Translations under genes and position numbers: made by a program
Notes under the pieces: model-generated
Databases searched by the model: none
The model's input: only the letters and a program-made list of their open reading frames with translations
Told to the model about the DNA's origin: nothing
Shown here: one piece after another, positions 11,567-61,282 of the stretch
Numbering within the stretch: the stretch's first letter is position 1
Layout of the letters: every line of letters begins with the position of its first letter
Assembly (NCBI GenBank): GCA_030622135.1
Contig: JAUXGL010000003.1
Span: 1-61,902, forward strand
Direction of reading: 5' to 3'
DNA: 61,902 bases
From: Deltaproteobacteria bacterium
Lineage (GTDB): Bacteria; Myxococcota; B64-G9

Positions 11567-11679
11567 GGTCCTTATCCTTTCAATCCACACAGATTCGCGA
11601 GCCATATTCATACTGCCAAACCCCCCTCGCCAGGTCAACGATTTTGCAAACGACGCAACAGTTGATAGTATGGTCGACC

Positions 11680-13748: not shown

Positions 13749-13797
13749 CAGGTAACCTCCAGAACCGCCGGGCAAATACCACCCGCCCGTGCCGATG

Positions 13798-17027: not shown

Positions 17028-17120
17028 GGAGACTACGTCGCAACAAAACCCTTGCAGACAACGGCCGGGTGAATAGAATAATGTTCTATTTTTACATATC
17101 TATATCGTCTGGAGGTTTTC

Positions 17121-17929: not shown

Positions 17930-18154
17930 ATGCGCGGCGTTGGTGGCTCCGGTAAGACTCGCGAAGCTGCACCTGATTTGGAGGTGTTCCTGAGGCTGGC
18001 CCTAGAGACCTTCAGGCGGGAAGAGATCTCGCGGGCGAAGCTCGTCGAAGTCACGGCCATGGTCGATGTGGCCGCGAGCGATGTGGATCGAGCCACTTTG
18101 GACCTGGGCCTCGATGATGACGGGGGTGCCGAGGTTCACCTCCCCGGAGCGTAG
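17930..18154 (+). pseudogene. remnant 3' end of an XRE-ImmA/IrrE-type gene
   Basis: The last ~55 codons (LALETFRREEISRAKLVEV...GAEVHLPGA*) duplicate the C-terminus of the intact gene at 33039..34304. No HTH or HExxH part lies upstream. Confidence 0.75.
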
Positions 18155-18193
18155 TCGATGGCTGCTGTGGAACGAACACGCATCGTCGTGACC
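17994..18193 (+). repeat. left copy of 200-bp direct repeat flanking the island
   Basis: Ungapped hand alignment with 34144-34343 gives 192/200 identical. Confidence 0.9.
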
Positions 18194-18323
18194 GACGCCA
18201 ATGTGCTCATCAACCTGATCCATGTGGAAGTTCTTCGCCTTATAAATGCCATTCCTGAAGGGCACCTGGTAGAGCGACTGGAACTCGGTCTCGGTCCACT
18301 TCATCCCACCAACTCCTCAAAAT
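18158..18323 (+). pseudogene. 5' fragment of a PIN-domain (VapC-like) gene, truncated at the island edge
   Basis: MAAVERTRIVVTDANVLINLIHVEVLRLINAIPEGHLV matches a PIN N-terminus (D-x-N-V-L-I). Beyond ~18300 the frame reads antisense to the DUF1016 gene. Confidence 0.55.
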
Positions 18324-19352
18324 TCATTCCATGCCCTCCAGCAGGCTGGAGATTTCTTCAGGTGAGGGCAACTGGCCTTTTAGCTCCTTGGGTAAACGCT
18401 TGATGGTGCGATAGGTCGCGACGCCAACGGGTTTGCGGGCATCGTGCAAGGCGTATTCGACTACCGTCCGGTTTTTTTCTTTGCAGAGTATGATGCCGAT
18501 GGATGGGTTTTCGTCTTCCATGCGCACCTGGCGGTCGAGGGCGGCGAGGTAGAATTGCATCTTGCCCACGAACTCGGGCTGGAACTTGCCGATCTTGAGC
18601 TCGATGGCGACCAGGGCCTTCAAGCGGCGGTGGTATAGCAACAAGTCAATGAAGTATTCGTCGCCGTCCACCTCCAGCCGAAACTGGCTGCCCACGAAGG
18701 CAAACAACCCACCCATGGTGCGAAGGAAATCCTCGATACGGGCAATGAGTGCGCGTTCTAGCTCGCGCTCGGAATGTTCCTCGCCAAGTTCCAGAAAATC
18801 GAAGGTGTATTCGTCCTTGACGGCAAGTTTTGCCTGCGCTTGAAGCTCCGGGGTGAGAGCCTGGTCGAAATTGGTCTGGCCGAGCAGTGTCTTCTCGTAG
18901 CTTTGGTTTTCAACCTGATGCAGCAGGACATTCCTGGACCACCCGAATTTGCGGGTCATGCGGAGGTAGAACTCCCGTTCCTGCGGGTCTGAACAACGCT
19001 GCAAAATAACGAGATTGTGGCTCCAGCCGATTTCTCGCACAAGCAGTGCGAGTTTTTCAGAATCTGTGTACGCTTCGAAAAAGGCCTTCATGCGCCAGAG
19101 GTTGGAGGTGGAAAAACCGCCAACTCCGGGGAATTCAGTTCGCAAATCCTTGGCCAGTTGTTGAACAACCGACTTGCCCCATGTATCTCCGGCCTGCCGC
19201 TCCAGGATCAGCTTGCCGATATCCCAATACAGGCCGACCAGCTCGTTGTTGACCATCTTGAGAGCTTGATACTGGGCGGCACGGACTCGCTCTTTGATCT
19301 CGATCAGCAGGCCTGCGTAGTCTGCGGGAAGCTGGAGTGAGTTTTTGCTCAT
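18324..19352 (-). CDS. DUF1016/YhcG-family PD-(D/E)xK nuclease
   Basis: 342 aa from the ATG at 19352. Family-typical LVGLYWDIG, GFS.SNLWRMKAFF, SWSHNLVIL, and the core FIDLLLYHRRLKALVAIELKIGKF. ATGA overlap with the upstream gene. Confidence 0.85.
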   Translation of the reverse strand: MSKNSLQLPADYAGLLIEIKERVRAAQYQALKMVNNELVGLYWDIGKLILERQAGDTWGKSVVQQLAKDLRTEFPGVGGFSTSNLWRMKAFFEAYTDSEKLALLVREIGWSHNLVILQRCSDPQEREFYLRMTRKFGWSRNVLLHQVENQSYEKTLLGQTNFDQALTPELQAQAKLAVKDEYTFDFLELGEEHSERELERALIARIEDFLRTMGGLFAFVGSQFRLEVDGDEYFIDLLLYHRRLKALVAIELKIGKFQPEFVGKMQFYLAALDRQVRMEDENPSIGIILCKEKNRTVVEYALHDARKPVGVATYRTIKRLPKELKGQLPSPEEISSLLEGME

Positions 19353-19810
19353 CCCACCAACTCCTCGAAGTTGGCGGTGATGGTCTTCGCCAGTTCCGTC
19401 GCTTCCTCGCGGGCGTGGTCGATGACGCGGATCGTGAGCTTCTGCACCTCGTTGATCTGTTTTCGTAGCGAGGCGAAACGGGTAACAAAGGGCAAGAAGC
19501 TCTCGTGGAGTGCCCGCTGCTGGGCGTTGGTTGTCTTGGTGCCCGCGCCTTTCTTGCCGGCCCAAGTCTGCAAGTCCTTGAACAGCGTAATTCGCTCGGA
19601 CGTGAAGGTGACGATCGTTTCGGTTCGCTTCTTCTGGATAGCCTTGAAGTAGAACACCGCGACATCATCGACCCCGTCAGCAGGGTCGTGCTCAAGTACA
19701 ACACGCTGAACCTTGGAGCCTTCTCTGAGAAGCTCTGCGGCTTGGCGCCAGAAGAACAGACCCTGGTAAACATCGCCTTCCGTACGTGAACCTACCTGTC
19801 CGAGCGCCAT
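19349..19810 (-). CDS. small DUF4297-like PD-(D/E)xK nuclease-domain protein
   Basis: 153 aa. EGDVYQGLFFWRQAAELL...VVLEHDPADGVDDVAVFYFKAIQKK resembles the N-terminal nuclease core of DUF4297/Cap4-type endonucleases. The TGATG junction overlaps the upstream stop by 1 nt. Confidence 0.5.
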   Translation of the reverse strand: MALGQVGSRTEGDVYQGLFFWRQAAELLREGSKVQRVVLEHDPADGVDDVAVFYFKAIQKKRTETIVTFTSERITLFKDLQTWAGKKGAGTKTTNAQQRALHESFLPFVTRFASLRKQINEVQKLTIRVIDHAREEATELAKTITANFEELVG

Positions 19811-21405
19811 CACGCACCTCCTGTCGGAAGCTCTTCGGCCAGGCGCGCGAAGAGCTCGATGCAGGCAAAGCAAATCGATGCGGCGTAGGCCGTGGTCAGC
19901 TTGTCCTCGAGGTGTTGACCCAGATCGCCGGCGCTCTTGACGTGCTCGACGAGAATGTAGCTCGACCGCGTGACATGCTTGGCGACCGTGGGTAGGTTGC
20001 CGTACCCACCTGTAATCTCCCGGAGGACCGCACACTGTTGTCCGTCTTGCTTCGGGAACACTCGTTGCGTGCGTTCGATCGGCTTGACCCCGTCCTTCTC
20101 TTCGCCTTTCCAGGTGTCGATCCAGGACTGCGGCCACTTACCAGCATCCAGCTCTGCATCCCAGATGAGCTCAAGCGCCCGACGCGAGATGAGCCGGATC
20201 GAGTTGAGTGTCTCCGCTGGTCCCACCGCCAGCTCCCGGGTGGCTCGCTCGACATAGCCTCGAAGCTTCGCGTCCCCCCCAGGCACTTGCGCCAGTCGGA
20301 GTTCGAGAACTCGTTGGATCTGTTTGGCGTACAGGTCTTCTGTCAGAAACAGCCTCTTGAGCTCGACCGCTTCACTACCATGGCGGAGTGCCATCTTCTC
20401 CATGAAGCGGCAGTTCAGCTTGGGCTTCCTGCTCGGCGTGAGAAAGCCACGCTGGGCGCCAAACAGAGCACGGTCCTGCGGAATCGAATCCGCAGCGGGT
20501 TGTTTGGCGGCGAGCGCATGAAGGTCTCCGCGCACCTCGATCGGGCAGTCATCCCACAGGTGTTGGAGCAGTGCGTAGGCGCCGCCGGCGATGGCCTCCG
20601 CTTTCTCGTTCACTGCTTGTCCATCGATTTTCGAGCCGGAGCCAGCGGTTTCAACGAGACCACGGCACAAAAGGGCAACCAGAGCTGGGTGACCACCGGA
20701 CCAGTTGAAGATCTCCTTGCGCGCCGACGTGGCAAGATTCTCGACGTGAGCGGCGAGCGGAGCCAGGACCATGTCCTGTTCGTTCTCTTCGAATGGCTCC
20801 AGCACAACCACGGGATCTGCAAAGATGTTCCAGAACTCCGAAGCCAGCGAGTCGGGGTTGTTGCAGAGATCCTGAATTCGACGCCTTGTTCCTGTCACAA
20901 AGGTGCATGACGACTTCAACCCGATTTCACGTAGATAGTCCCAGAGGTTACGGCTGATCGTCGGAGAGCTGAGGACGTGATCGAGCCCGTCCATGATCAC
21001 CAGAAGCCGACCGGTGTCAGTGAGGTAGTCGAAGACCCCCGCCAGCACCTGCGGGAGATCCTCTTCGGTTGTTTCGAGGTCGATCAGTTCAGCGGATTCA
21101 TCGTTCGCATTCTTCAGAGCCGCGTGCACTTCATCGAGGAGTCTTTGACGAAACTCGTGATCCGTTCGAGGCGTATGGTAACGCAGGTCTAGAAAGGCCG
21201 ACGTAACATAGCCGCCGCGCTCAGGACCCACGACGCCGGCGAGATGGTGGAGGAAAGTGGTCTTGCCGATGTACGGCGCTCCAACCATGGAGATGTGGTC
21301 GCCTGTCGCCTTGCCGATTCTGCTCAGGACTGCATTCAGCACCTTCTGACGGCCGAGCATAGGTACCTGAGGAGCATTGGCCAGCGGGTAGAGGTCTTTG
21401 GTCAT
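19810..21405 (-). CDS. NACHT-like STAND P-loop NTPase with helical C-terminal domain
   Basis: 531 aa from the ATG at 21405 (ATGA overlap with the upstream gene). Walker A GAPYIGKTT and Walker B LLVIMDGLDHV (NACHT-style DGLD), followed by a helical C-terminal region. Confidence 0.7.
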   Translation of the reverse strand: MTKDLYPLANAPQVPMLGRQKVLNAVLSRIGKATGDHISMVGAPYIGKTTFLHHLAGVVGPERGGYVTSAFLDLRYHTPRTDHEFRQRLLDEVHAALKNANDESAELIDLETTEEDLPQVLAGVFDYLTDTGRLLVIMDGLDHVLSSPTISRNLWDYLREIGLKSSCTFVTGTRRRIQDLCNNPDSLASEFWNIFADPVVVLEPFEENEQDMVLAPLAAHVENLATSARKEIFNWSGGHPALVALLCRGLVETAGSGSKIDGQAVNEKAEAIAGGAYALLQHLWDDCPIEVRGDLHALAAKQPAADSIPQDRALFGAQRGFLTPSRKPKLNCRFMEKMALRHGSEAVELKRLFLTEDLYAKQIQRVLELRLAQVPGGDAKLRGYVERATRELAVGPAETLNSIRLISRRALELIWDAELDAGKWPQSWIDTWKGEEKDGVKPIERTQRVFPKQDGQQCAVLREITGGYGNLPTVAKHVTRSSYILVEHVKSAGDLGQHLEDKLTTAYAASICFACIELFARLAEELPTGGA

Positions 21406-24400
21406 GATTCCGATCTCCCTTCCTGTACCGCGAGCTTGAGCAGCTCCCTGCGGTCGACGTTCCGCTCGATCCACAGACCCATGAGTGGGACCGTGAGCCG
21501 ATAGACATGGAAGGTGCCGTCCGGCACCTGTGAGATCAGCTCCAGCTCCCTCAGGTGATCGAGGTCATCGCGTAGGCCCTCGACGCTCACGACGTCGCCA
21601 TAGCCAAACCCGGAGCCATCACCACTTCCGCTGCCGTATCCGGAGCCATCGCCAAATCCGGAGCCATCACCGCTCCCGCTGCCGTATCCGGAGCCATCGC
21701 CGTATCCGGAGCCATCGCCGCTCCCGCTCCTGCTCCTACCGCCGAATACATCGTCATAACCGTAACCAATACGAGCGGCCTCGAGCTGGTTCTGCAGCAA
21801 ATCGAAGGTGACGGGATCCGGACCATCCTGGAGGTCGTGGCACAGTTGAAGGACGTACCGTGTGCGCTCCGAGCCAGCATAGCCCCACAGCGTGCGAAAG
21901 TGCTCATTGTCACGGATCATGTCCTCGACTGCGGCATCCACCTGCTTCTTCGAAACGTGACGGACCTCCTCCGCTACGGCCCTATCGAACACCCGAGCGC
22001 ACAGGAGTTGGATGAGGAAGGGATGACGTGCACACAGGGTGGTGATCCGCTCGATGGCGTCTGGTTGGTAGGCCAAGCGACCAGCGACAGGCTTTTGGAC
22101 AAGATCCTCCGCGGCACCTTGCGGGAGGACGGTCACGGAGATTGCGAAACCGAAACCAAACAGTACGTTCCAGTACTCCTCGCGCAGCCTTCGGATCCGT
22201 CGTGAGCCGGTGAGAATGCCTGCCATGCCGGTGTTGTTCTGGAACAGGTAGCGGATGTTCTCCGGTACCTGCGGGCTGGTGACGCCTGAGTCGATACCCT
22301 CCTGTAACTTGTCGAACTCATCGAGCATCAAGAGCAGGCGCCTCGGCGCAACGGCATCGACGGCCACGGCTACCAGCGAATCCAGCGATGTGAATGCAGC
22401 TCGCTCCCTAAACCAGGCATTCACCAGGCTGGGCAGCTTCATGTGTACAAAGGCCTTGCGCTTCTTGTCCGGCCACTGGAGCAAATCGTCGGGCGTGCCG
22501 GGGATGGGGAGTGGATATCCAGCGAGGGCACAGTCTCCCGCAAGCGCTCGGCCAATCGTCTTGAAGACCTCGTCGGTGGGAACGCCAACCTTCGTGCTGT
22601 CACCGGCCGAAGCCTGAAAAGAACAGTACACCGGGACGTGGGACGGGAGTGTATCTGGCCGTTGCAAGCTTTTGAGGATAGAGGTCTTGCCGGTCCGCCG
22701 GTTGCCTTCGAGCAGGATGACGTTCGCGACCCCGTCCTGGCTGAGATGCAGCCGCATCTTGTCGAGGATGTCTTCTCGACCGAAAAACATCTCGGGCCTA
22801 TCAACAGGGTTTCCCACGATGTAAGGGCTCGAACCCATCGCTTCGGGCTCAGTGTCCTTGGCTGCGTGGTCTTTAGCCTCGCCGAGGCTCAGGTCGACGG
22901 TGACCTCCCCCTTGACGGGCTCGAGCGTAGCTGTTGTCCCCTTCCAGGACAGCGTGGCTCGAAACGAATCATCGAGTTCATCGGGGATGCCGATCACGTA
23001 GCGCTCTTCCTGCTCTCCAAGCAGCATATCCTCAGAGATCTTGCGCAAAAGCACGGAAGGCGAAGCGCTCAAGGCTGCTTCGATCCGCAACAGGGGCGCA
23101 GAACCCGCATTGCGTACTCCGATCGTTACCGTTCGTCCAAGCTCCGGCGTCTCAAAGAGCACGCCTTGTTTCACCGTCGGGCCGGGGTCAGGCATCTCAA
23201 AGAGTACGTTTTGCCTCGAGTGGGAATTCGGATGGATCTGGAAAGCCTCGATAGCTACATCGCGTACCAGCGAGCGGCTTGCGTGGATCAACAGGAACCA
23301 TGCCGAGTCCAGCGCTCGCTCCAGACCTCGGCTGTGTGCCCGGAGGCCCTCGGGAATGGACCGGCTGGCCTCCTTCAGGGCCGTAACGACGGCCGATTGG
23401 GCGGACACTTGAATGGGCACAGCGGAGGGGGCCACCACATCGGTCGCCACACCCGCCAGACCATCAGCGATCGGATGTAGCGCACTCACCCAGCTCGAAA
23501 TCTCATCGCCGATGTGGAGCCGGATCGGATCGTCCGCCGCAGCGAGCGCACGTGTAAGCCCCTTACCGAACAGCCGGAGCACCGCGACGGGGTCTTCTTG
23601 GGTCTCCGCAGTGCGCGCGTGGGCGAGCGCGTTTCTCAGTTGGCGGACCGCCTGCACAGCGGGGTCAGATTCCAAGTAGGTAACCACCGGGTGAGTGTCT
23701 TCGGTGAGAACCAAGCGAAGCAAAGCGAGAGCGTCGCCTCCGCGATTCTCGATGGCGTCCGCGATGCGCTCCTGGATCGGGATCGGTGGGCGGGGCAGTC
23801 GGATACGCTTGAGAACCGATAGCGAGAGATGTTGAACAGCGATGCCACGGGCCTGAGACTTCATTAGCTCTTGAAGAGCTGGCGATCGCAATAGCCCACC
23901 CAGGTAACGACTGGACACACCCTGCCGCGGCCGAACGACGATGACACCGTTGGTGGCGATGCACCCGACGCTTCCATTGGTTACCGTTCCAACCCGGCCG
24001 ATGCTGCCTGAAGTGGTCACCACGAGGTCGCCCAAGCGCAACACCTGTCCCTCTTTGGCTCGCTGCACAAGCTCTTGGCGTGCGAAAAGCGATGGGGACT
24101 GCACTCGCCGTTCGTTGACATCGCGCACACGGATCAGGCCTCGGGTTTCCTCGGCTGCGTTGATGTCCTCGGTTGTCTTTGCGCGTGTGTAGCCCAAGCC
24201 GTTGCTCAGAGACGCCATCTCGCCCAAGGACACTACATCCACGTCGTCGAGCTGTTCGAGCTCTGTCAGGGTGACCTGAAGCTCTTCTTCCGCCGCAGAC
24301 GGTGCGATGAGGTTCCAGTCGTGTTCGGCAAGCTCTGACAAGCCAACAACGCGAACGGGACCGTCTGTAGATTCACCTCGGACCCAAGAGATAATCCTGT

Positions 24401-25598
24401 CGAGGTCGCGGTCCAGGTTGAGTGTCTCTCCAAGTACGTTAAGATCGACAAAGCGTACCTGCTTTGCGCTGCCGGTCTTGGAGAGCACCAACAGGGAGAT
24501 CTGAACGCCGGTGTAAGGCAGAAAAGACCCGGTGGGCAGTTGGAGAACGGCTTCGAGGTGATGGTCCTCGATCAGCCACTGCCGCAAGGCCTGTTCCGCG
24601 CCGCCACGAAAGAGAAGCCCGTTCGGCACGGCAACGACAGCTCTTCCCCCAGGACGAAGCGAAGCCATGGCGAGTTGGAGAAAGGTCGCCTCCAATGTGT
24701 TTGTCTTGAAGGGGAGATGCTCGTGTACGGTGGCTTCGCGCGGGCTGCGCTTGCCCCAGGGCGGTACCGCAACCACCACGTCGAAGCGCTGGGCATGTCC
24801 ATTTTCCAGCGGGCGCTGAAGCGCATCTCCGAGAACAAGGCCCGGGTGGTGAACGCCAGCCAGCAGAACTCGTACAAGGCCGATGAGGTGAATGGCGGGC
24901 GAGATCTCCACACCGAAAACGCTCTCTGCCTGAACGCGCTCCCATAACTCGGCAGTGTGAAACTCCGCTGATTGCTGCAACTTGTCGATGCACCGGATGA
25001 GGACCTCCCCCGAACCAAAACAAGGGTCAAAGATCCGTTCACCAGGCGCGGGCGCCGCAAGGCGTGCCATTAGCTCTGCCACCGCCGGAGGGGTCGCATA
25101 GGCTCCACTGTAACGAGACTTGGCGACAGTCTTTCGAAGCAGGTCTCCAAATATCTCGCCGGCGCGTCGCTGGTCAGCATTGGTCTCAAAGGGCAGCTCG
25201 GCCACGGCCTGTAGCAGGTCTTGGAGATCACCGTGTGAGCTGAGCGCATCTTTGATGCTTGGATGCGAAAAATCGACAGAGAGGACGTCGGGGCGTGCTT
25301 CAGCCAGGGCGGGCACGAGCTTGTCTTGGACGTAACCCGCGAGATCAGGTCCCTGCAAGCCGGACCAGGTGTCCCATGCGAGTTCACGCGGCAGCATGTG
25401 CTCGTAGTTCTCGTCGTTGAAGAGCGCGATAGCCTCGCGCTCGGCATCGATCAGGTCGACCCAGCGCAGCAGAAGCAACACCGCCAACTGCGGCAGGGTC
25501 TCGGTCCACGGGTCGACGGCGTTGCCCCTGCGGGCATCGGCCGCCGACCACAAAGCGTGGCTGAGCCTGTCTTCGATGCTGGTGGGGGTGGGCTGCAT
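21402..25598 (-). CDS. fusion protein: HsdM-like N6-adenine methylase module + single HsdS-type TRD + STAND/Arch-type ATPase + low-complexity G/S/D/Y insert
   Basis: 1398 aa from the ATG at 25598. HsdM_N-like LWSAADARRG..LLLLRW. Motif I FDPCFGSGE (25005-25031). Motif IV reads VPPW. TRD-like LGEMASL.NG..., ...ATNGVIVVRP, ...HLSLSVLKRIRLPRPPIPIQERI. FFGRE + Walker A GNRRTGKTS (22680-22706). Walker B LLLMLDEFD (22311-22337). Confidence 0.8.
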   Translation of the reverse strand: MQPTPTSIEDRLSHALWSAADARRGNAVDPWTETLPQLAVLLLLRWVDLIDAEREAIALFNDENYEHMLPRELAWDTWSGLQGPDLAGYVQDKLVPALAEARPDVLSVDFSHPSIKDALSSHGDLQDLLQAVAELPFETNADQRRAGEIFGDLLRKTVAKSRYSGAYATPPAVAELMARLAAPAPGERIFDPCFGSGEVLIRCIDKLQQSAEFHTAELWERVQAESVFGVEISPAIHLIGLVRVLLAGVHHPGLVLGDALQRPLENGHAQRFDVVVAVPPWGKRSPREATVHEHLPFKTNTLEATFLQLAMASLRPGGRAVVAVPNGLLFRGGAEQALRQWLIEDHHLEAVLQLPTGSFLPYTGVQISLLVLSKTGSAKQVRFVDLNVLGETLNLDRDLDRIISWVRGESTDGPVRVVGLSELAEHDWNLIAPSAAEEELQVTLTELEQLDDVDVVSLGEMASLSNGLGYTRAKTTEDINAAEETRGLIRVRDVNERRVQSPSLFARQELVQRAKEGQVLRLGDLVVTTSGSIGRVGTVTNGSVGCIATNGVIVVRPRQGVSSRYLGGLLRSPALQELMKSQARGIAVQHLSLSVLKRIRLPRPPIPIQERIADAIENRGGDALALLRLVLTEDTHPVVTYLESDPAVQAVRQLRNALAHARTAETQEDPVAVLRLFGKGLTRALAAADDPIRLHIGDEISSWVSALHPIADGLAGVATDVVAPSAVPIQVSAQSAVVTALKEASRSIPEGLRAHSRGLERALDSAWFLLIHASRSLVRDVAIEAFQIHPNSHSRQNVLFEMPDPGPTVKQGVLFETPELGRTVTIGVRNAGSAPLLRIEAALSASPSVLLRKISEDMLLGEQEERYVIGIPDELDDSFRATLSWKGTTATLEPVKGEVTVDLSLGEAKDHAAKDTEPEAMGSSPYIVGNPVDRPEMFFGREDILDKMRLHLSQDGVANVILLEGNRRTGKTSILKSLQRPDTLPSHVPVYCSFQASAGDSTKVGVPTDEVFKTIGRALAGDCALAGYPLPIPGTPDDLLQWPDKKRKAFVHMKLPSLVNAWFRERAAFTSLDSLVAVAVDAVAPRRLLLMLDEFDKLQEGIDSGVTSPQVPENIRYLFQNNTGMAGILTGSRRIRRLREEYWNVLFGFGFAISVTVLPQGAAEDLVQKPVAGRLAYQPDAIERITTLCARHPFLIQLLCARVFDRAVAEEVRHVSKKQVDAAVEDMIRDNEHFRTLWGYAGSERTRYVLQLCHDLQDGPDPVTFDLLQNQLEAARIGYGYDDVFGGRSRSGSGDGSGYGDGSGYGSGSGDGSGFGDGSGYGSGSGDGSGFGYGDVVSVEGLRDDLDHLRELELISQVPDGTFHVYRLTVPLMGLWIERNVDRRELLKLAVQEGRSES
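21597..21743. repeat. in-frame 48-nt tandem repeat (about 2.75 units) encoding SGSGDGSG(Y/F)GDGSGYG
   Basis: The peptide GGRSRSGSGDGSGYGDGSGYGSGSGDGSGFGDGSGYGSGSGDGSGFGYG is read directly from the ORF. The DNA shows repeating ccggagccatc(a/g)cc units. Confidence 0.85.
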
Positions 25599-25602
25599 GG
25601 TC

Positions 25603-26778
25603 TCAGAGCTCTCCCGCAAAGGCTTTGCGGAGGATGGCTGCGCGGAAAGTTGCCGAATCATCAATGCCGTACTCTTTGCAGAGCGCAGTTGACGCTCGCC
25701 AAGCCTCGTCCAAGCGCTCGATCAAGACTTGTTGCACTGCTAGTTTGGGAACTGGAATCTCGACTGACCGAAGCCTTTTTCCAGAGATCTTCACCATGCT
25801 CTGGCTACTACCCGTTGCTCTTTCTTGAATCTGTTTGCGAGTGTCAGGAAATCGCAATGTATACATTAGGTACTTAGGAAGAATGATCGCATCATTTGCG
25901 CAGAGACGAATCATCAAGTCTGGATAGATAACTCGGTCTTCGACTGCGGCCTCAGCAATAGCCGATAACCCGACGAATTCGACAGTGTTGGCGCGCGAAA
26001 TGAATACGTCGCCAATAGCAACTTGGTATTTCTTGGCAACTCCGTCATCCATTTCGACCCACTTGAACTTTGACACGTCCAGATGTGGTTCGCGTACAGA
26101 TGCCAACGTCAGGATGCGCCCTGTCCCATGATCGCCCAATGATTTGATTGACCTGCCGTTTCGACTGTCGACCAGGATGTTGTCCATGGTCATCATGTTC
26201 GTTCCGGCATCAGTCTCCGCGCGATGCAGAAAGGAGCCGAATAGCGCCTTTGCCTCATCTTCTGCCTTATTGCGCAACCTCCGCAGCTCATCCACTCGCT
26301 CCATGGCATCACGAATTCGCGTCACGATGCGCTGTTGTTCATTGAGTGGGGGAGTGGGTATCTCAATCGACTCCAACTTCCCCTTTGTTATGTGTCGCAA
26401 TCCGACCCCGCCATGGGCCAGCTCGATCATCTCATCAAGCTGGGAGTTGACCGCATGCAAGAAAAACAGTGGGAGTATTCTCTTCGGGTCAACAAGGACT
26501 TTGAAGATGTGTTGATTGAGGACGGCATTACCGCCATGCCATTGGAAACACCCAAACGACGTGCCAGGCGTGCCCGACCATGAAAGCAGAATGTCACCGC
26601 TTTCGATAATGTGCTTATCCTTGACCTCTCCATTGTAGCGATTGAACGGCTTTGATGGATTGTTGAGGTTCTGTATCCGGACGATCTTCAGTCCTTCTTT
26701 GGTCCAGTCAGATGGCTTGAAGGCTCGTCCGTTGACAAGGTCGCATAGGTCACCAATGTGGGTACGCCTCCAGTTCAT
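25603..26778 (-). CDS. hsdS: type I restriction-modification specificity subunit
   Basis: 391 aa with two TRDs separated by the conserved spacer PPLNEQQRIVTRIRDAMERVDELRRL. C-terminal conserved helix ...AILRKAFAGEL. ATGA overlap with hsdM. Confidence 0.9.
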   Translation of the reverse strand: MNWRRTHIGDLCDLVNGRAFKPSDWTKEGLKIVRIQNLNNPSKPFNRYNGEVKDKHIIESGDILLSWSGTPGTSFGCFQWHGGNAVLNQHIFKVLVDPKRILPLFFLHAVNSQLDEMIELAHGGVGLRHITKGKLESIEIPTPPLNEQQRIVTRIRDAMERVDELRRLRNKAEDEAKALFGSFLHRAETDAGTNMMTMDNILVDSRNGRSIKSLGDHGTGRILTLASVREPHLDVSKFKWVEMDDGVAKKYQVAIGDVFISRANTVEFVGLSAIAEAAVEDRVIYPDLMIRLCANDAIILPKYLMYTLRFPDTRKQIQERATGSSQSMVKISGKRLRSVEIPVPKLAVQQVLIERLDEAWRASTALCKEYGIDDSATFRAAILRKAFAGEL

Positions 26779-28295
26779 ACCTCCCCCTCCAACATCTCCT
26801 CTAACTCCCCAAGAAGCTCGAAGATCCGCTCTTCTTTCGTCTTGATGGATCGCACCAGCTCCAGCGCCGGAACGTGCTCGTAGTCGTCTTTCTTGTTGGG
26901 GTTACGAGCCGTGAGGTCCCAGCCATCTTCCTCAAAGGCAACCTCATCGAACTCGACCACCCATGAGTTGTCGCCCTCGACCTGCTTCTTCCGCTTCTTG
27001 AGAAAATCGGGGAGTTGGCTGCCCTCGATTGGTTTGCGCGTCTGCTTCAACTCGAAGCCGTCGTTGGTCAGCTCGTAGAACCAGATCTTGTTTGTGGTAG
27101 CGGCCTTCTTCGGTCGGTCAAAAAAGATGACGTTGGTCTTTACGCCGGTGTAGGGCAAGAATGCTCCGGCCGGCAGAGATAGGATGGTGTGCACCTTGAA
27201 CTGGGTTAGCAGCTTCTTGCGCACCTTGGCATCCGGACCGCCGCGAAACAGCACGCCCTCGGGAAGGATCACTCCCGCTCGTCCGCCCTTGGCCAGGTTG
27301 GTCATGATGTGCTGCAAGAAGAGGATCTCGGTCGCGGCCGACTGGATGGTGAAGTTGCCCTGGGAGTCCCGGTCCATCTTGCCGCCATAGGGCGGATTGG
27401 AGAGGATCACAGAAAAACGGCGCTGCTCGGCCACGTTGTTCTCGTGGCGCTCCAGGGTGTCGGCCAGGGCCAGCTTGGCCTTGTCGATACCGTGTAGGAT
27501 CATGTTCATGACCCCGAGCAAGTAGGAAAGCGGCTTGAGCTCGTTGCCGGCGAAGGTGTCTCTTTGAAAACGCTCGAAGTCTTCGCCGCTCATGTTGGAG
27601 TCGTGGTGCTTGATGTACTCTGCCGACTCGAAGAGAAAGCCGGCCGTCCCCATGCAGGGATCGTAAACGCGGTCACCAAGACGTGGTTTGACCACTTCGA
27701 CCATGGCCTTGACGATGTGGCGTTGGGTGTAAAACTCGCCCGCGTACCCGGCGGAGTCACCGGCAACGTCCTTGAGCAGGCGCTCGTAGATCTCCGACAG
27801 CTCGATAACGTCGGCCTGGCGGCTGAAATCGATCCGTTCGACCTGACTGACCACGCGGGCAAAGCTGCCGGGGCGCCGGCTGTGATTGCGGATCGTGCTG
27901 AAGATGCGCTGGAATTGGAGGCCAAGGGTATCGTCGCCGAGGGTCGTGAGCTTCTCGAAGAGGTCGGCGTTGACAAAACGAAAGACCTCTTCGGGAGTCT
28001 TCAGGCCTTTGACAGCCTTACTCTTGCCGGTGAGCGCGCGAGTCCACGTCGACCAACGGTACTTGCCATTGAGCCGCCTCTCATAGGGCGTGTCCTCGAA
28101 GGCGGACTCTTCTTCTCGGCGGTCCTCCGATGCCTCGAAGGCTTTCAGGAAAAATAGCCAGGAGAGTTGCTCGACGTAATTTCGCGGCTCGACACCGTCG
28201 CTGTTGAGCTGATCGCAGGCATTGTTGACCGCCTGCCGTACATTGTCGCGTCGTGCCTCGGCTCCGTTTCCTGGTTTTGTGGTCTTTGAAGTCAT
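26775..28295 (-). CDS. hsdM: type I restriction-modification DNA methyltransferase subunit
   Basis: 506 aa. HsdM_N-like YVEQLSWLFFLKAF, motif I VYDPCMGTAGFL and canonical motif IV ILSNPPYGG. Confidence 0.92.
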   Translation of the reverse strand: MTSKTTKPGNGAEARRDNVRQAVNNACDQLNSDGVEPRNYVEQLSWLFFLKAFEASEDRREEESAFEDTPYERRLNGKYRWSTWTRALTGKSKAVKGLKTPEEVFRFVNADLFEKLTTLGDDTLGLQFQRIFSTIRNHSRRPGSFARVVSQVERIDFSRQADVIELSEIYERLLKDVAGDSAGYAGEFYTQRHIVKAMVEVVKPRLGDRVYDPCMGTAGFLFESAEYIKHHDSNMSGEDFERFQRDTFAGNELKPLSYLLGVMNMILHGIDKAKLALADTLERHENNVAEQRRFSVILSNPPYGGKMDRDSQGNFTIQSAATEILFLQHIMTNLAKGGRAGVILPEGVLFRGGPDAKVRKKLLTQFKVHTILSLPAGAFLPYTGVKTNVIFFDRPKKAATTNKIWFYELTNDGFELKQTRKPIEGSQLPDFLKKRKKQVEGDNSWVVEFDEVAFEEDGWDLTARNPNKKDDYEHVPALELVRSIKTKEERIFELLGELEEMLEGEV

Positions 28296-28307
28296 GTCAG
28301 CAAATCC

Positions 28308-30602
28308 TCATGCGCTAAGCGGAACGTAGAGATGGCGCTTGACCTCCTCGAGGTCACTGCGCAGTTGCTTGGCGTTTCCGTAGCGTCTGAGCAACTGCGT
28401 GAAGCTGCCAAAGCGACCTACGAACTGCGGGGTGCGGAACGTGCGGGCATCTTCGAGATCATCGACGCCAAACAGGGTGTAGTGGTCGAGGCAGGTCTCC
28501 CAGAATTGCAGGCGAATCCGGTCTTCCTGCGAGATGTTCTCCTCGCCGATATGCGCGAGCAGCCAGTCCTGGTCGTACTCCCAGAAGTGGGCGACACGAT
28601 CCCGTCGCTCGGGAACCCTGACCAGATCAAAGGCTACCTTTGACAAGACATCGACATCGTCCGTCTCCGGGAGGTCGAAGAAGTGGCGAAAGGCGGCTAC
28701 GTGGACATCCTGGTCACGAAGCTCAGCCCGGAGCTCCTGGCGCGTTCGCTTGTCAATCCATGCGTCCAGCAGCGCCTTGAGGTCAGGCGTTACGAGCGTT
28801 CGTATCGCGCCCTTTGATTGCTCCTTGTATTCCTCGAATGGGATCTTGCGTCCATCCGCCAGGCACACGAAGCGGCGGTTGTCAGAGAGCTCGATGGTGA
28901 CTCCCTGCTCGACCGGAATGTCTTTGGGCTCGCTTTTCTTGCGAGGTTTCTTCGCGGGCTTTCGCGACTTGTCCTGATTGGCCGGGTGGCCGTCGAACTC
29001 GGAGTCCTCGAGCGTGCTCGCGCCAGAGTAATCCCAGATCGTGAAGTAGCGCTTGTCGACCTCTGGGTCGTCGCACAATCGAGTGCCGCGACCCTTCATC
29101 TGTTTGTAGAGAATGGAGCTGCGGAGGGGGCGTACAAAGACGATGTTCTTGACGTCAGGGGCGTCGTATCCCGTGGTCAGTAGATCGACGGTGACGGCGA
29201 CGCGAGGATTTGTGCGGCCGACTTCCTGAAAGTTCCGCTCCAGCTGGTGGGAGTTCCTCTCGGCGCGGGTAATTCGCGCGGCGTATTCGGGGTCTCCGGT
29301 GATCCGTCTGAGCTCCTGCGCCATGAAAGCCGCGTGAGTGTCATTGACGCAGAAGACGATGCTCTTCTCGTTCTCGAGCCCGTACCTCTTGAGCTGAGCG
29401 TAGAGGTCTTCCGCGATCCACTTGGTGCGATCCGGCAGAGACACATCACGCTCAAAGTGTTTGGTCTCGTATCGGCGCCCATCGGGGCCGTCGTAACCCT
29501 CTTCGTCGACGTTGGTGATGCGCTGCTCGAGAAGGTAGGGCACCAGGTAGCCATCTTCGATGGCCTGTTTGAGCGAATAGGTGAAAATGGGCTCGCCGAA
29601 ATACTCATAGCTGTCCCGACGGAGTTCCTCGGGGCTAAGGTCCCGGCCCTCTTTGTAAAGCTCACGCGGAGTGGCCGTCAGGCCTAACTGGTAGGCCTTA
29701 CCAAAGTGCTCCAAGACCCCGAACCAGTCGCCAAATCCAGAGCGATGGCACTCATCGATGACGATGAGATCAAAGAAGTCGGCCTCGTAGTGTTCATAGA
29801 GCTTTTTGCCGTCCAGCTCCTCGTCGAGGTTCTGGTAGTTGGCGAAGAACACCTTACCAACTCGGTGGGTCCCGGCTTTGACAGCGTTCTTGTCAATGGT
29901 GACGCGCTCGTCCGTTGGGAAACCATTGAACGCTCGGTAGGCCTGACCCTTGAGGCTGTTGCGATCCGTGAGAAAGAGGACGTTTCCTCGTGGAAGGATA
30001 TCGGTTTGCAGGAGCTTCCACACGAGTTGAAAGACCGTGAAGGTCTTGCCCGTGCCCGTGGCCATGAGCAACAAGACCCGGCGGTTGTCTTGCGAGAACT
30101 GGTACAGCGCCTCAGTGATGGCGCGCTCTTGATACGGACGGACCTTCTTGCGCGAGATCTGATCGACGTGCCAGTCGGCAAGGAAGGCGTCATTCCAACT
30201 GCGGGGGATCATGTTGAGCCCCATATAATGGAGAACATCGCCAGGTGGAGGAGGCGTATCCTGGGTGTGGTACTCGCCAGTCTTGTTGTCAGTGACGATG
30301 TACTCGTGGCCGTTGCTCGCGATGGAGAAGCGGAGGCTCAGACGCTGTGCGTAGCGCGAGCCTTGCTGCATCCCGTCAGATGCGTCTTCGTCCTCCCTCT
30401 TCGCTTCAAGAATGGCCAGAGGCATACCATAGAGCTTGAGGACGTAGTCGGCGACGATGTGCTGATGCTCATCGTACATTCGTTCGCCGGAGAGATTCAC
30501 TCGTCCGGGGCCAATCATCACCTCACGAGACCATGTCCAGCCTGCAGCTTCGAGCGCAGGCTCGATAAGCTCTCGGCAGGTTTGGTTCTCGTTGCGGCTC
30601 AT
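28308..30602 (-). CDS. hsdR: type I restriction endonuclease subunit R
   Basis: 764 aa. N-terminal nuclease region ETCRELIEPALEAAGW...ADYVL...AILEAK. SF2 helicase motifs LLLMATGTGKT and VIDECHR. GAGGAG SD 5 nt upstream of the ATG. Confidence 0.9.
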   Translation of the reverse strand: MSRNENQTCRELIEPALEAAGWTWSREVMIGPGRVNLSGERMYDEHQHIVADYVLKLYGMPLAILEAKREDEDASDGMQQGSRYAQRLSLRFSIASNGHEYIVTDNKTGEYHTQDTPPPPGDVLHYMGLNMIPRSWNDAFLADWHVDQISRKKVRPYQERAITEALYQFSQDNRRVLLLMATGTGKTFTVFQLVWKLLQTDILPRGNVLFLTDRNSLKGQAYRAFNGFPTDERVTIDKNAVKAGTHRVGKVFFANYQNLDEELDGKKLYEHYEADFFDLIVIDECHRSGFGDWFGVLEHFGKAYQLGLTATPRELYKEGRDLSPEELRRDSYEYFGEPIFTYSLKQAIEDGYLVPYLLEQRITNVDEEGYDGPDGRRYETKHFERDVSLPDRTKWIAEDLYAQLKRYGLENEKSIVFCVNDTHAAFMAQELRRITGDPEYAARITRAERNSHQLERNFQEVGRTNPRVAVTVDLLTTGYDAPDVKNIVFVRPLRSSILYKQMKGRGTRLCDDPEVDKRYFTIWDYSGASTLEDSEFDGHPANQDKSRKPAKKPRKKSEPKDIPVEQGVTIELSDNRRFVCLADGRKIPFEEYKEQSKGAIRTLVTPDLKALLDAWIDKRTRQELRAELRDQDVHVAAFRHFFDLPETDDVDVLSKVAFDLVRVPERRDRVAHFWEYDQDWLLAHIGEENISQEDRIRLQFWETCLDHYTLFGVDDLEDARTFRTPQFVGRFGSFTQLLRRYGNAKQLRSDLEEVKRHLYVPLSA

Positions 30603-30613
30603 CGTGACTCCTC

Positions 30614-30631
30614 GGTGACTAGCGTGTCACC
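30614..30631 (-). promoter_or_regulatory. 6-bp inverted repeat in the hsdR leader (GGTGAC-N6-GTCACC)
   Basis: Read directly. Lies between the predicted sigma-54 start site and the hsdR SD, so it is either an operator or a 5'-UTR hairpin. Confidence 0.4.
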
Positions 30632-30641
30632 CAGTCTAAGT

Positions 30642-30657
30642 TGCAGATGTCGTGCCA
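30642..30657 (-). promoter_or_regulatory. sigma-54 (-24/-12) promoter driving hsdR and the downstream operon
   Basis: The minus strand reads TGA-TGGCACG-ACAT-CTGCA, against the consensus TGGCACG-N4-TTGCW. It starts immediately after the activator gene's stop and lies about 40 nt upstream of the hsdR ATG. Confidence 0.75.
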
Positions 30658-32175
30658 TCATCTCTCCACCCCATATTTCTTGAGCCAGTTCGTTAGCGTC
30701 TGATAGCTCGGGAGGCCCACCAGCTCGGCGGCCTTGGTCTTGTTTCCGCTCGCCTCATCGATGGCGCGCCCCAGATAATGCCTGGCTATTTCTGTTAGTA
30801 AATCCGGTAGGTTGAACTTGCCACCAAGCTGCCGCCCGAACGCCTCCGACCGGCTTGCGAAGCCGGAAGGGAGCAGAGCCTCTCGCGCATCTTCGACGGT
30901 GATCGTCGCGCTGTCGGACCAGATCGCTGCACGTCGGAGCGTGTTGAGCAACTCCCTGACATTGCCGGGCCAGGGATGCGAAAGCATAAGATTTCTTGCC
31001 CCAGCGGAAAGTTTCTTGTGCTTGAACTCAGGTTCGACCATAGCCTCTTCATTCACCTGCTGGAGAAGTCGGTCGATGAGTAGTCCAAGGTCGCCAGCGC
31101 GATCGCGAAGCGGTGGGATATTCAGGACGGCAACCGCCAGTCGGTAAAAGAGGTCTTCACGGAAGCGGCCGGCTGCAATCTCCTCGGTGAGGGTCCTATT
31201 CGTCGCGGCAATGATGCGGACGTTGACCTTGGCGGCTTTGGTCGACCCGAGACGAACAACCTCTCCCTCTTGGATGACCCGGAGCAGCTTCACCTGGGCC
31301 GAACCGGGCAGATCCCCGAGTTCATCGAGAAACAGGGTCCCGGTGTTCGCAGCCTCGAAGTAGCCCTTCCGCGGTTCATTCGCGCCAGTAAACGCTCCCT
31401 TCTCGTGCCCAAAGAGCTCTGACTCCACGAGGTCGTCGGGTATTGCCCCGCAGTTGACCGCTACGAACGGCGCCTGGCTCCGAGTGCTCGCCTGATGGAT
31501 CGCGCGCGCGATCATCTCCTTGCCTGTTCCTGACTCTCCCTCGATCAAGACGGGTACGTTGCGAACCGCTACTCGCCGCGCTCGTTGGATGAGTCGGTCC
31601 ATCACCCGGCTTCGATAGATGATATCGGCGAACTCGGGCGCCTCAGGCGACTCGGCGCCGCTCAGCTCCCGCAAGCGTTCATCGCGTTCGCGGAGCAGAT
31701 CTGGCAGGAAGTCGACGGCGATATCGAACGGGACCTCGGCGGTGCGCACGCCATGGTCCCTTGAAGACTCAATCAGCTCTGCCGGGAACCGTGTCTTGGC
31801 GAGTAGTATCCAGACCGCCGCCATCGCCGGCGTGCCCGGGCTCAAGTGGAAGCTGAGCGAGGCCTCTTTCGCGCGTCCGTCCAGAGCTGCGCTGATCGTG
31901 CGGACGGCAGCCTTGTAGATCTCCCCAAAGTTAGTCGGGCCAGAACGCGGCTCGAATTGTAGGTCGATCTTTGCTGCCGTTCGAGCCCGCACCCACGCGG
32001 CGTAGGGTTTGACCTCCGCCTTGGGATAATCGTGAAGAAGAATGATGCGGTCGAACGCAAGCGCATCCACTGCCTGAGCAATGGGCCCGACTCCGACCGT
32101 CTCCTCCTCCGTTCGTGCGCGGAGATCCGTTCGGCCGACCCAGCTGACAAGAACCTTCTCCATGCCGAAAGACAT
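30658..32175 (-). CDS. RtcR-family sigma-54-dependent transcriptional activator (CARF-type N-domain + AAA+ + Fis-type HTH)
   Basis: The N-domain [32 protein letters not shown] parallels E. coli RtcR's YLIHITTGTHVAQICWFLLAEARYLPARLIQSS. AAA+ motifs GESGTGKE, the GAFTGA loop and FLDELGDL. C-terminal [26 protein letters not shown]. Confidence 0.85.
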
Positions 32176-33025: not shown

Positions 33026-33038
33026 GGGAGGAGAGCAC

Positions 33039-61266: not shown

Positions 61267-61282
61267 TGGCACCGTTGTTGCT
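61267..61282 (+). promoter_or_regulatory. sigma-54 (-24/-12) promoter
   Basis: TGGCAC-CGTTG-TTGCT matches TGGCAC-N5-TTGCW exactly. Lies 84 nt upstream of the ATG at 61366. Confidence 0.7.

Follow-up and report, generated by a model that had tools for sequence, protein, structure and literature searches.

A probable anti-phage gene set, spread over many bacterial phyla, that joins an RtcR-like regulator and a type I restriction-modification operon to an unnamed fusion-NTPase pair

Eight consecutive minus-strand genes on contig JAUXGL010000003.1 of a Deltaproteobacteria bacterium (assembly GCA_030622135.1; the window is the whole stretch analysed, 61,902 nucleotides) raise the question of which of them belong together as one defence system, and how such a system could work. 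An earlier note on this DNA had read seven of them as a single translationally coupled operon behind an RtcR-family regulator and a sigma-54 promoter, and had proposed a composite system in which type I restriction-modification (R-M) is extended by a pseudo-methylase-ATPase fusion, a NACHT-like ATPase and two PD-(D/E)xK nucleases. The genes, coordinates, junctions and promoter given there are confirmed by the open reading frames (ORFs) and the sequence: eight intact ORFs run from 32175 to 18324, every one with an ATG start, a TGA stop and a Shine-Dalgarno-like sequence upstream, the regulator is spaced 55 nt from hsdR, and the junctions from hsdR onward are +12, -4, +4, -4, -1 and -4 nt. In the explanation that we tentatively favour, the cassette would consist of six genes and not eight (the regulator, hsdR, hsdM, hsdS, a 1398-aa fusion of a methylase, a target-recognition domain (TRD) and a STAND-type NTPase, and a 531-aa partner NTPase), would have been acquired horizontally and would serve in defence. 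The fusion and its partner are a real, unnamed and widely distributed two-gene module, and the cassette is a probable anti-phage gene set found across many bacterial phyla.

The identities of the eight proteins were established with hidden Markov model (HMM) scans against Pfam, PADLOC (v2.0.0) and NCBIfam. For the extent of the system, a pattern scan over one genome per species gave 156 relatives, from which 79 loci were kept (individual loci carry an L number below), plus metagenome contigs; the ORFs called in each of them were searched with the window's eight proteins as queries. Full-length relatives of the fusion (1300–1400 aa) number more than 147 in the protein collection, where 'N-6 DNA methylase' is the most specific name that they carry, and the fusion loci are spread over at least 10 phyla, with hosts in the Acidobacteriota, Gemmatimonadota, Latescibacterota, Planctomycetota, Cyanobacteria, Desulfobacterota, Spirochaetota, Armatimonadota and Chloroflexota as well as in the Beta- and Gammaproteobacteria. 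The closest genome locus, in an Acidobacteria metagenome-assembled genome (MAG), has a fusion of 63% identity. Where a locus extends far enough, an NTPase of ~530 aa comes after the fusion almost without exception, usually with overlapping junctions, and the commonest order, all on one strand, is regulator, hsdR, hsdM, hsdS, fusion, NTPase; the RtcR/sigma-54-controlled type I R-M operon with a methylase-TRD-STAND fusion and a NACHT-like partner, proposed in the earlier note from the window alone, is conserved across loci. Two shorter layouts occur as well. Regulator, fusion and NTPase stand without hsdRMS within 10 kb in 14 loci, and in three others (L042, L074 and L087, the last on an Acinetobacter ursingii plasmid) hsdR, fusion and NTPase overlap or are adjacent, with no hsdM or hsdS; the Prokaryotic Genome Annotation Pipeline (PGAP) names the three genes of L087 'type I restriction endonuclease subunit R', 'N-6 DNA methylase' and 'ATP-binding protein'. 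Co-occurrence with fusion homologues, a check suggested for all of the additional genes, is thereby seen for the 531-aa NTPase, with or without hsdRMS, and not for the last two genes of the window. A conserved effector gene downstream of the NTPase was also considered and rejected, as no gene family recurs there and the largest downstream family is present in only 7 loci.

The members of the cassette do not evolve at one rate. Median identity to the window proteins in the related loci is 65% for HsdR, 61% for HsdM and 62% for the regulator (47 related loci) versus 34% for the fusion and 35% for the NTPase, HsdS being at 32%; a slowly evolving regulator/HsdR/HsdM lineage therefore travels with a faster-evolving fusion-NTPase pair. 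On the contigs that carry an 82%-identical fusion (L084–L086), the NTPase is either shortened to 408 aa or gives way to an unrelated ORF on the minus strand. Regulator, hsdR and hsdM are present as split ORFs in L059 and L069 (Pseudomonas sp. KNUC1026); either the cassette decays in some lineages or the assemblies hold frameshift errors. A DNA search of E. coli genomes with the locus from a Klebsiella MAG found nothing, at the nucleotide level only and so not as proof of absence.

The first 440 residues of the fusion (24279..25598, minus strand, like all window features below unless marked otherwise) comprise an HsdM-like N-domain and a gamma-class N6-adenine methylase fold with motif I DPCFGSG and motif IV VPPW (Pfam N6_Mtase 1.6e-40 over residues 147–434; PADLOC MTase_I aligning residues 26–393 to model positions 18–396 of 491). 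They are followed by a single HsdS-type TRD at residues 450–620 (23739..24251; Methylase_S 3e-08 over residues 515–618, and PADLOC Specificity_I), and by a helical bundle and a beta-sandwich at residues 621–905 (22884..23738; AlphaFold2 (AF2) model m064aad3975d5), which are the least conserved part, with 26–29% mean identity. The best-conserved part (58% mean identity) is an ORC/Cdc6-STAND-type P-loop NTPase at residues 920–1280 (21759..22841), with Walker A EGNRRTGKTS, Walker B LLMLDEFDK and a weak AAA_16 match at 938–1100; across 75 loci its Walker motifs (EGNRRxGK[ST]S and LLMLDEFDK) are near-invariant, and the best Foldseek matches of the fusion are archaeal Orc1/Cdc6-DNA complexes, then NLRs and Apaf-1. 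Residues 1281–1398 (21405..21758) were delineated with AF2 and Tandem Repeats Finder (TRF) as a disordered Gly/Ser/Asp/Tyr-rich linker between the NTPase and a C-terminal winged helix. The linker, GSGDGSGYGDGSGYGSGSGDGSGFG..., is encoded by a 48-nt tandem repeat at 21597–21728 (-) with 2.8 copies and 91% matches (TRF); in the AF2 model of residues 601–1398 (bundle, beta-sandwich, P-loop NTPase with lid, linker and winged helix; mean predicted local distance difference test (pLDDT) 79) the pLDDT falls below 50 at model residues 681–737, after which an H-E-E-H-H domain follows. The 82%-identical homologue is 52 aa shorter, and the number of linker repeats may vary between homologues. The C-terminal 778 aa of the fusion match zero PADLOC families.

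Whether the methylase part could still methylate depends on the lineage. In 75 aligned fusions motif I (DPCFG) is conserved in nearly all members, L037 having its D changed to C (YCPCFG), and the PPW of motif IV is nearly invariant, while the first, catalytic residue of motif IV is variable. We compared this residue with the presence of hsdM in the 71 loci that had enough upstream sequence to score hsdM. The catalytic N or D is kept (N/D-PP-[WFIV]) in 26 of them, all but one with hsdM; V, A, C, S or H stands there in 24 of 49 loci with hsdM versus 21 of 22 without it (Fisher p = 1.2e-4, uncorrected for phylogeny), and motif IV is non-canonical in all 14 regulator-fusion-NTPase loci, none of which has hsdR nearby. 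The most extreme loss of the catalytic loop was observed in the Longimicrobiales fusion L064, with a 15-residue insertion in motif IV (ASP-RSILAAGVRPELRLN-PWD). The label of a pseudo-methylase thus probably fits the window clade, judged by its VPPW motif, and not the family as a whole; a family-wide loss, which VPPW throughout a 21-sequence alignment had suggested, was rejected as sampling bias once the 75-locus alignment was at hand. The TRD of the fusion is conserved and not hypervariable, with a mean pairwise identity of 41% versus 46% for the methylase part, and shares 23% identity with TRD1 of the cognate HsdS; therefore it does not track the variable specificity of HsdS. The idea that the fusion TRD and the cognate HsdS are co-specific was rejected on the same 23% identity, on the lack of co-variation and because the fusion TRD is conserved while HsdS varies.

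The partner (19810..21405) is a NACHT-like STAND NTPase of 531 aa with Walker A GAPYIGKT, Walker B MDGLDHV, a winged-helix region and an all-alpha C-terminal domain. The window protein itself has weak Pfam matches to AAA_16, nSTAND2 and NACHT, and 26 homologues match AAA_16 (26/26), NACHT (19/26), ATPase_2 (17/26) and NB-ARC (7/26); Walker B follows the NACHT pattern, reading MDGLDH in the window protein and LDGFDH in the consensus of the family. Its AF2 model (pLDDT 87) matches ORC2/Cdc6, the archaeal ATPase PAby2304, Avs3 and CED-4, among others, in Foldseek. Residues 2–299 are paralogous to residues 922–1254 of the fusion (hhalign 98%, E 6e-14), and because their NTPase parts are paralogous, a hetero-oligomer of the two proteins is plausible. 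The C-terminal domain (residues ~352–531, with invariant R370, R404, E418 and H498) appears to be private to the family: ten excised domains gave no Pfam match at E up to 10, a profile search of Protein Data Bank (PDB) sequences returned only noise, and its profile found 409 clusters among 1.84 billion representatives, all of this family; in the 150 best listed matches the domain nearly always forms the C-terminal end of a protein of ~525 aa. In the whole-chain Foldseek search the NTPase dominates the matches and the C-terminal domain is not isolated. An identification of this domain as HEPN/DUF4145, suggested by eye from its helix pattern and a similar 'G-D-x-G-x-H' loop, was rejected since the arginine of the canonical Rx4-6H motif is missing and neither Pfam nor PDB gives a match; a HEPN-like topology is possible. 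PADLOC scans, proposed in the earlier note as the way to settle novelty, leave both the ATPase half of the fusion and the 531-aa protein unnamed, the latter matching no system or candidate model, while assigning the DUF1016 gene of the window to an existing candidate, PDC-S02.

The gene that heads the cassette (30658..32175) encodes a 505-aa RtcR-like enhancer-binding protein with a CARF N-terminus, a sigma-54 AAA+ domain with a GAFTGA loop and a Fis-type helix-turn-helix (HTH) C-terminus, the architecture of RtcR. Its best match among the PADLOC CARF_AAA_HTH models is RtcR_PspF2 (8.7e-200), a model that reportedly derives from Makarova et al. 2020, and Pfam gives Sigma54_activat (2.4e-71) and HTH_8; with 343 bits against a cut-off of 650 for NCBIfam RNA_repair_RtcR it is not an RtcR equivalog, and neither rtcA nor rtcB lies beside it, its neighbours being hsdR after and an XRE/M78 gene before. 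The sigma-54 (-24/-12) promoter, TGGCACGACATCTGCA (30642..30657), is placed directly after the regulator TGA and 40 nt before the hsdR ATG and has one mismatch to TGGCAC-N5-TTGCW. Since the window holds 19 sites with ≤ 2 mismatches to the sigma-54 consensus versus ~27 in shuffles, such a match proves nothing from one window, and we regard the promoter as real because an equivalent element recurs at the same position in related loci: 37 of the 45 loci with an RtcR-like gene before the cassette have a GG-N10-GC element with ≤ 2 mismatches there, mostly with 0–1 mismatch and mostly starting 0–3 nt from the regulator stop codon. Two loci with no regulator nearby still have a sigma-54-type element ~50 nt upstream of the fusion, while the cyanobacterial loci L008, L012 and L015 have neither regulator nor such a promoter, which fits the absence of sigma-54 from the Cyanobacteria as a phylum. 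The sole zero-mismatch site in the window, TGGCACCGTTGTTGCT, lies at 61267–61282 (+).

Behind the promoter follows what is, by its predicted activity, a classical EcoAI-type type I R-M system. HsdR (28308..30602; 764 aa) has a PD-(D/E)xK motif (ILEAK), a superfamily 2 (SF2) helicase core (DECH) and the EcoEI_R_C tail of type IB (EcoAI/FtnUII-like) enzymes, with Pfam matches to ResIII, HSDR_N, Helicase_C and EcoEI_R_C, PADLOC REase_I at 6e-92 and NCBIfam restrict_EcoAI at 1e-153 (513 bits, just below the cut-off of 550). HsdM (26775..28295; 506 aa; N6_Mtase 1e-62, HsdM_N, PADLOC MTase_I 7e-136) has canonical motifs I (DPCMGTAGF) and IV (NPPYGG), and HsdS (25603..26778; 391 aa) has two TRDs, seen as two Methylase_S stretches and a full-length PADLOC Specificity_I match; the three genes form one operon (+12, -4), as in type IB systems.

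The last two genes of the window, which the earlier note had read as the nuclease effectors of the system, have no counterpart in any other of ~80 loci, and the contigs of the 82%-identical fusion do not carry them either. The first (19349..19810; 153 aa) is a chimeric ORF. Its N-terminal ~65 aa resemble the DUF4297 domain of Cap4, the PADLOC models Effector and SAVED_PDDEXK matching residues 4–66 only (model positions 3–65 of ~500); of the eight domain calls made earlier, this is the one that the HMM scans bear out for that segment alone, the other seven being upheld. Its C-terminal ~110 aa belong to a long HsdM, as residues 43–152 align with residues 482–581 and 688–703 (the extreme C-terminus) of a 704-aa HsdM from a Crinalium plasmid (BLASTP 1e-14). 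A Cap4 of a cyclic-oligonucleotide-based anti-phage signalling system (CBASS) has a full DUF4297 and a SAVED domain beside a CD-NTase; the ORF is not such a protein, and no CD-NTase lies in this part of the window. The second gene (18324..19352; 342 aa) is an intact DUF1016/YhcG PD-(D/E)xK gene with full-length membership (YhcG_C 4.5e-62, DUF1016_N 8.6e-46, PDC-S02 1.1e-152 over residues 1–340), and behind it lies an hsdS fragment (18002..18304; phmmer 1e-07), whose first 27 codons match the HsdS N-terminus of the Crinalium plasmid (67% identity, BLASTP 8e-12), after which the similarity ends; the ORF as a whole has no Pfam match. The three together, hsdM'-DUF1016-hsdS', look in their sequence like the remnant of a second, decayed type I locus, of which DUF1016 was probably an embedded gene; HsdM-DUF1016-HsdS is a layout known from type I systems and is listed, for example, for Marinomonas in the supplementary table of Makarova et al. 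(2014, PMC4012209). In our reading, the 153-aa ORF arose by a deletion that brought the 5' end of a CBASS-type effector gene up against the 3' end of the second locus's hsdM. In three related loci CD-NTase genes stand directly after the NTPase (L002, L051 at 13709–14860 and L075 at 16588–17739), which fits a former CBASS neighbour as the source of the Cap4-like fragment in the window; these neighbours also make cyclic nucleotides a conceivable ligand of the CARF domain. In L002, where the coordinates are 1–1311 and 15530–16474, a second CD-NTase and a SAVED gene lie beyond the regulator. Despite their tight junctions, the two genes are placed outside the system because they are absent from every other locus; tight junctions are insufficient to make a seven-gene system of one coupled operon, and we read the -1 and -4 junctions as inherited from earlier genes and not as evidence of membership.

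GC content drops to 55–61% over 17–31 kb compared with 62–65% in the flanks, and these flanks are housekeeping, with a TonB-dependent receptor with a CarboxypepD_reg domain, purA and PEGA/fn3 proteins on the low side and Kelch, PEGA and SLT proteins on the high side; therefore the region looks like an acquired island. It is bordered by two PEGA-domain proteins at 10418–11866 (-) and 36337–38019 (-) and by the TonB-dependent receptor, with its CarboxypepD_reg N-domain, at 14706–17027 (-); these flanking genes would be consistent with an Acidobacteriota-type host, and the genome around the island was read as probably Acidobacteriota-like. Divergent from the regulator lies a gene for an XRE-type HTH and M78 (ImmA/IrrE-like) peptidase protein (32679–34304, +), with a weak NCBIfam match to the spr1629-family repressor/antitoxin and a listed ORF start that is probably too far upstream; it is not conserved beside the cassette elsewhere, apart from a single weak match in L005. 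Rfam and tRNA scans of the window were empty.

Elsewhere, the cassette is found in the company of known defence genes, as the earlier note had suggested should be checked. Its neighbours include CBASS genes (CD-NTase, SAVED), a second sigma-54 activator, PIN/MazEF toxin-antitoxin pairs, SIR2, a HATPase-helicase, WYL/WCX regulators, RNA ligase and DUF4143. Nine large same-strand downstream ORFs from nine loci, chosen by eye, were scanned for defence matches. Among them, the complete genes of Zorya type I follow the cassette co-directionally in L024 (15527–23216; ZorA 1.5e-181, ZorD E = 0), and DruH of Druantia III (L080, 15850–19353; 5e-130) and an Hhe/PDC-S37 protein (L026, 15813–22106) stand co-directionally directly behind it; an OLD/AriA/PtuA-like ATPase lies downstream in L029, and weaker ZacB and PglW matches occur in the same set. 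This association with known defence genes supports a defence role of the cassette. In the closest genome locus (L001/L004, 7294–8697) a Schlafen/AlbA_2 and HATPase_c_4 gene is inserted between hsdM and hsdS, another case of cargo embedded in this type I lineage. An RNA ligase (PF09414) was observed on the opposite (minus) strand just beyond the NTPase in L043 (7330–8286), L044 (17158–18345) and L065 (17160–18230); all three are of the regulator-fusion-NTPase type, and the gene may matter given the RNA-repair ancestry of RtcR.

Parts of this arrangement have been reported before, and the novelty claimed in the earlier note accordingly holds for the fusion-NTPase pair, unnamed in the databases, and not for the link between RtcR-like regulators and R-M, described in 2014 (PMC4012209), or for their superoperons, described in 2024 (PMC11090510). 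RtcR-like regulators next to R-M systems were reported by Makarova et al. (2014, PMC4012209), whose supplementary table lists the Desulfococcus oleovorans genes 158521270-74 as regulator, HsdR, HsdM, HsdS and a 1362-aa COG0286+COG0732+COG1672 protein, which is this fusion and carries no comment there, as well as loci with other cargo after hsdS. Bell et al. (2024, PMC11090510) described superoperons in which RtcR heads a co-directional array with type I R-M, Druantia III and CoCoNuTs. With the loci of both papers the cassette shares the regulator at the 5' end, the tight co-directional array and the type I R-M directly behind it (PMC4012209, PMC11090510), and the arrays of L024, L080 and L026 resemble the superoperons of Bell et al., Druantia III following in some cassette loci too (PMC11090510); the fusion, its paralogous partner and the conserved promoter position are, in contrast, not described in the passages of these papers on such loci (PMC4012209, PMC11090510). 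Our literature searches found no named system with a methylase-TRD-NTPase fusion or a fusion-NTPase pair, and no PADLOC, Pfam or NCBIfam model names the ATPase half of the fusion or the 531-aa partner, although the module amounts to about 400 clusters at 50% identity. A CoCoNuT superoperon was rejected for the window: the RtcR-headed co-directional array is there, but the core genes (the McrB-like GTPase CnuB, the McrC-like CnuC and the helicase CnuH) are not, the operon having no McrBC-type match, and beyond 18324 lie the receptor, purA and PEGA/fn3 genes of the low-side housekeeping flank.

Several known systems share single elements with the pair. PrrC with EcoprrI, and RloC, are abortive-infection genes embedded in type I loci; like the pair they place an NTPase-containing accessory gene in or beside hsdRMS, and they are thought to act when restriction is neutralised, but they join an ABC-type or Rad50-like ATPase to an anticodon nuclease, whereas here two STAND/ORC-type NTPases and a methylase-TRD head are found, with no recognisable RNase. 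Single-chain methylase-TRD enzymes are also known from type ISP (LlaGI) and type IIG (MmeI) systems, which methylate and bring their own nuclease, type ISP with its own helicase motor as well; as in the fusion, a single covalent chain holds a gamma-class methylase together with one TRD, and the two can read a half-site as a unit, but the fusion has a STAND NTPase instead and would rely at most on a separate HsdR. With Avs and other NLR-like proteins both NTPases share the NOD-type fold with intact Walker A and B, the NACHT-like Walker B (DGxDH/DEFDK) and helical and winged-helix modules, their Foldseek matches including Avs3, CED-4, Apaf-1 and plant NLRs; they differ in being two paralogous NTPases with an appended methylase-TRD, without a repeat-type sensor arm in the AF2 models and without a known effector domain, and neither matches a PADLOC Avs model. 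HsdM and the fusion weakly match MAD2 of the methylation-associated defence system MADS (63–89 bits vs. a cut-off of 720) and the TRD weakly matches MAD5 (44 vs. a cut-off of 400), scores far from membership, and the 531-aa protein matches no MADS model. The closest parallel in domain logic is bacteriophage exclusion (BREX), in which a gamma-class methylase with an HsdM-like N-domain and a TRD, an ORC/Cdc6-clade ATPase with a winged helix-turn-helix and a STAND-like partner occur (2026, PMC12839542), so that the fusion and its partner mirror PglX, BrxC and BrxB (PMC12839542). In the cassette, however, a single polypeptide holds both methylase and ATPase, the Walker motifs are intact in the two NTPases while BrxB is an inactive STAND protein, PglZ, BrxL and BrxA are absent, and the fusion methylase is probably inactive in the window clade; PglZ, BrxC and PglX models gave no match above noise, PglX reaching 21 bits and that to HsdM only.

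How the six genes might work together can be put into one explanation, the best we have as a whole and one that we hold with caution. Read-through from the regulator gene would provide basal expression that keeps the host DNA methylated, and an infection-linked nucleotide or RNA, the putative ligand of the CARF domain, would boost transcription. HsdRMS would act as an ordinary type I enzyme. The fusion would be a covalent 'M plus half-S' module that binds S-adenosylmethionine (AdoMet) through motif I, a flipped adenine through PPW and a fixed target through its conserved TRD, and that in the window clade would be unable to transfer the methyl group. Its ORC/STAND NTPase and the paralogous 531-aa NTPase would form an ATP-dependent switch, and the assembled complex would use HsdR as nuclease motor for a second, infection-gated restriction that does not depend on the mark specified by HsdS; the 153-aa ORF, DUF1016 and the hsdS fragment would be remains of a neighbouring CBASS effector and of the second type I locus. 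Restriction by type I enzymes requires AdoMet just as their methylation does; this would account for motif I and PPW being kept in fusions that have lost the catalytic residue. The near-invariance of DPCFG and PPW, and a TRD conserved despite the variation of HsdS, point to a recognition module under selection, and HsdR is suggested as the output because the hsdR-fusion-NTPase triads lack hsdM and hsdS. We infer the parts of this chain with falling confidence, from an anti-phage or anti-plasmid cassette whose expression the CARF/sigma-54 activator raises, through the M-plus-half-S reader and the NTPase switch, to the HsdR output.

Several points weigh against this explanation. Its main weakness is that the 14 loci with regulator, fusion and NTPase have no hsdR within 10 kb, so that either an HsdR would act in trans or the pair would have an effector of its own, e.g., the C-terminal domain of the NTPase. 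The supposed contacts of the fusion with HsdR and with the NTPase are suggested by gene order only, and the module is not maintained everywhere, the nearest relatives having a truncated NTPase (408 aa) or none. A restriction module that does not methylate needs another way of sparing host DNA; in the 26 loci with canonical motif IV the fusion may simply be a second methylase; and host DNA would go unmethylated if hsdM depended on sigma-54 alone, the read-through that would prevent this being hypothetical.

The 14 hsdR-less loci also keep alive a guard or integrated-decoy model, in our estimate unlikely, in which the HsdM-TRD head mimics the M2S core and is bound by DNA mimics such as Ocr or ArdA or by Stp-like peptides, or senses the depletion of AdoMet by phage SAM lyases; the STAND switch would then flip, the NTPases would oligomerise and abortive infection would be triggered through the C-terminal domain of the 531-aa partner. 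Precedents for guarding are PrrC, which guards EcoprrI, and PARIS, which senses Ocr. Standalone loci without a nuclease gene, each with a non-canonical motif IV, the loss of the catalytic residue in nearly all loci without hsdM compared with about half of those with it, the conserved and not diversifying TRD, the roughly twofold faster evolution of the pair relative to HsdR and HsdM, and a C-terminal domain that is confined to the family and has invariant R, R, E and H all agree with it. A decoy, however, needs neither the adenine-stacking PPW nor motif I, yet both are kept; the hsdR-fusion-NTPase triads suggest a direct use of HsdR; and no similarity to nuclease, HEPN, TIR or pore-forming families could be detected in the C-terminal domain. 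We consider it quite improbable that the pair works by BREX-like exclusion, with the fusion as PglX plus a BrxC-like ATPase and the 531-aa protein as BrxB/BrxD, marking host DNA at a fixed motif and blocking the replication of unmarked DNA without cutting it. The domain logic does match, with all elements in one fusion chain (PMC12839542), and marking and exclusion are possible for the NPPW members, the canonical N/D-PP-[WFIV] being kept in just over a third of the scored loci; on the other side stand the absence of PglZ, BrxL and BrxA, the lack of sequence-level matches to BrxC, BrxB and PglX models, and V, A, H, C or S at the catalytic position in the window and about two-thirds of the scored loci, where no mark could be written.

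Less probable still is a non-immune role, in which fusion and NTPase would serve epigenetic regulation, the assembly or maintenance of the R-M system, or post-segregational addiction of a mobile island. R-M systems can act as selfish elements, and the truncation or loss of the NTPase in the nearest relatives would agree with this, but the pair is consistently found in defence islands, in co-directional arrays with Zorya, Druantia III, Hhe and CBASS, its STAND architecture is typical of immune sensors, and it is linked to a CARF-domain regulator. Hardly credible is the composite of seven genes, in which the STAND module licenses the 153-aa DUF4297-like and DUF1016 nucleases once restriction is evaded. 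The -1 and -4 nt junctions do tie both genes to the operon in the window, and DUF1016 is intact and a defence candidate itself (PDC-S02), but neither gene stands beside the fusion in any related locus, the closest relatives included, the 153-aa ORF is pieced together from fragments of two genes, hsdM and hsdS fragments from a different locus stand on either side of DUF1016, and no gene family recurs downstream of the NTPase.

If the six-gene cassette with a fusion reader and an NTPase switch is taken as the working explanation, its bearing on the biology of type I systems lies in several directions. R-M is usually treated as constitutive, and a conserved type I lineage under sigma-54/CARF control is a tractable case of inducible restriction, with culturable carriers in Cupriavidus lacunae, Marinobacterium nitratireducens, Geomonas diazotrophica and the Acinetobacter ursingii plasmid. 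The cassette also bears on a question from the CoCoNuT work, namely what RtcR-like CARF domains sense in infection. The module is an example of a methylase-TRD unit recruited as the sensor of NLR-like NTPases, and its members, in which the catalytic asparagine has been lost repeatedly, form a natural series in which to ask what a reader of this kind recognises. A further reading, which we regard as doubtful, is that the fusion and its partner represent a new class of bacterial STAND immune receptors whose sensor is an integrated methylase-TRD, catalytically dead in many lineages; this sensor would read the methylation state of DNA or be hit by anti-restriction proteins and would then either license HsdR or set off abortive infection by way of the C-terminal domain private to the family. 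The CARF/sigma-54 regulator would switch on the whole cassette in response to a nucleotide or RNA signal derived from infection. If that were true, the cassette would provide an inducible restriction that tells self from non-self by other means than its own methylation mark.

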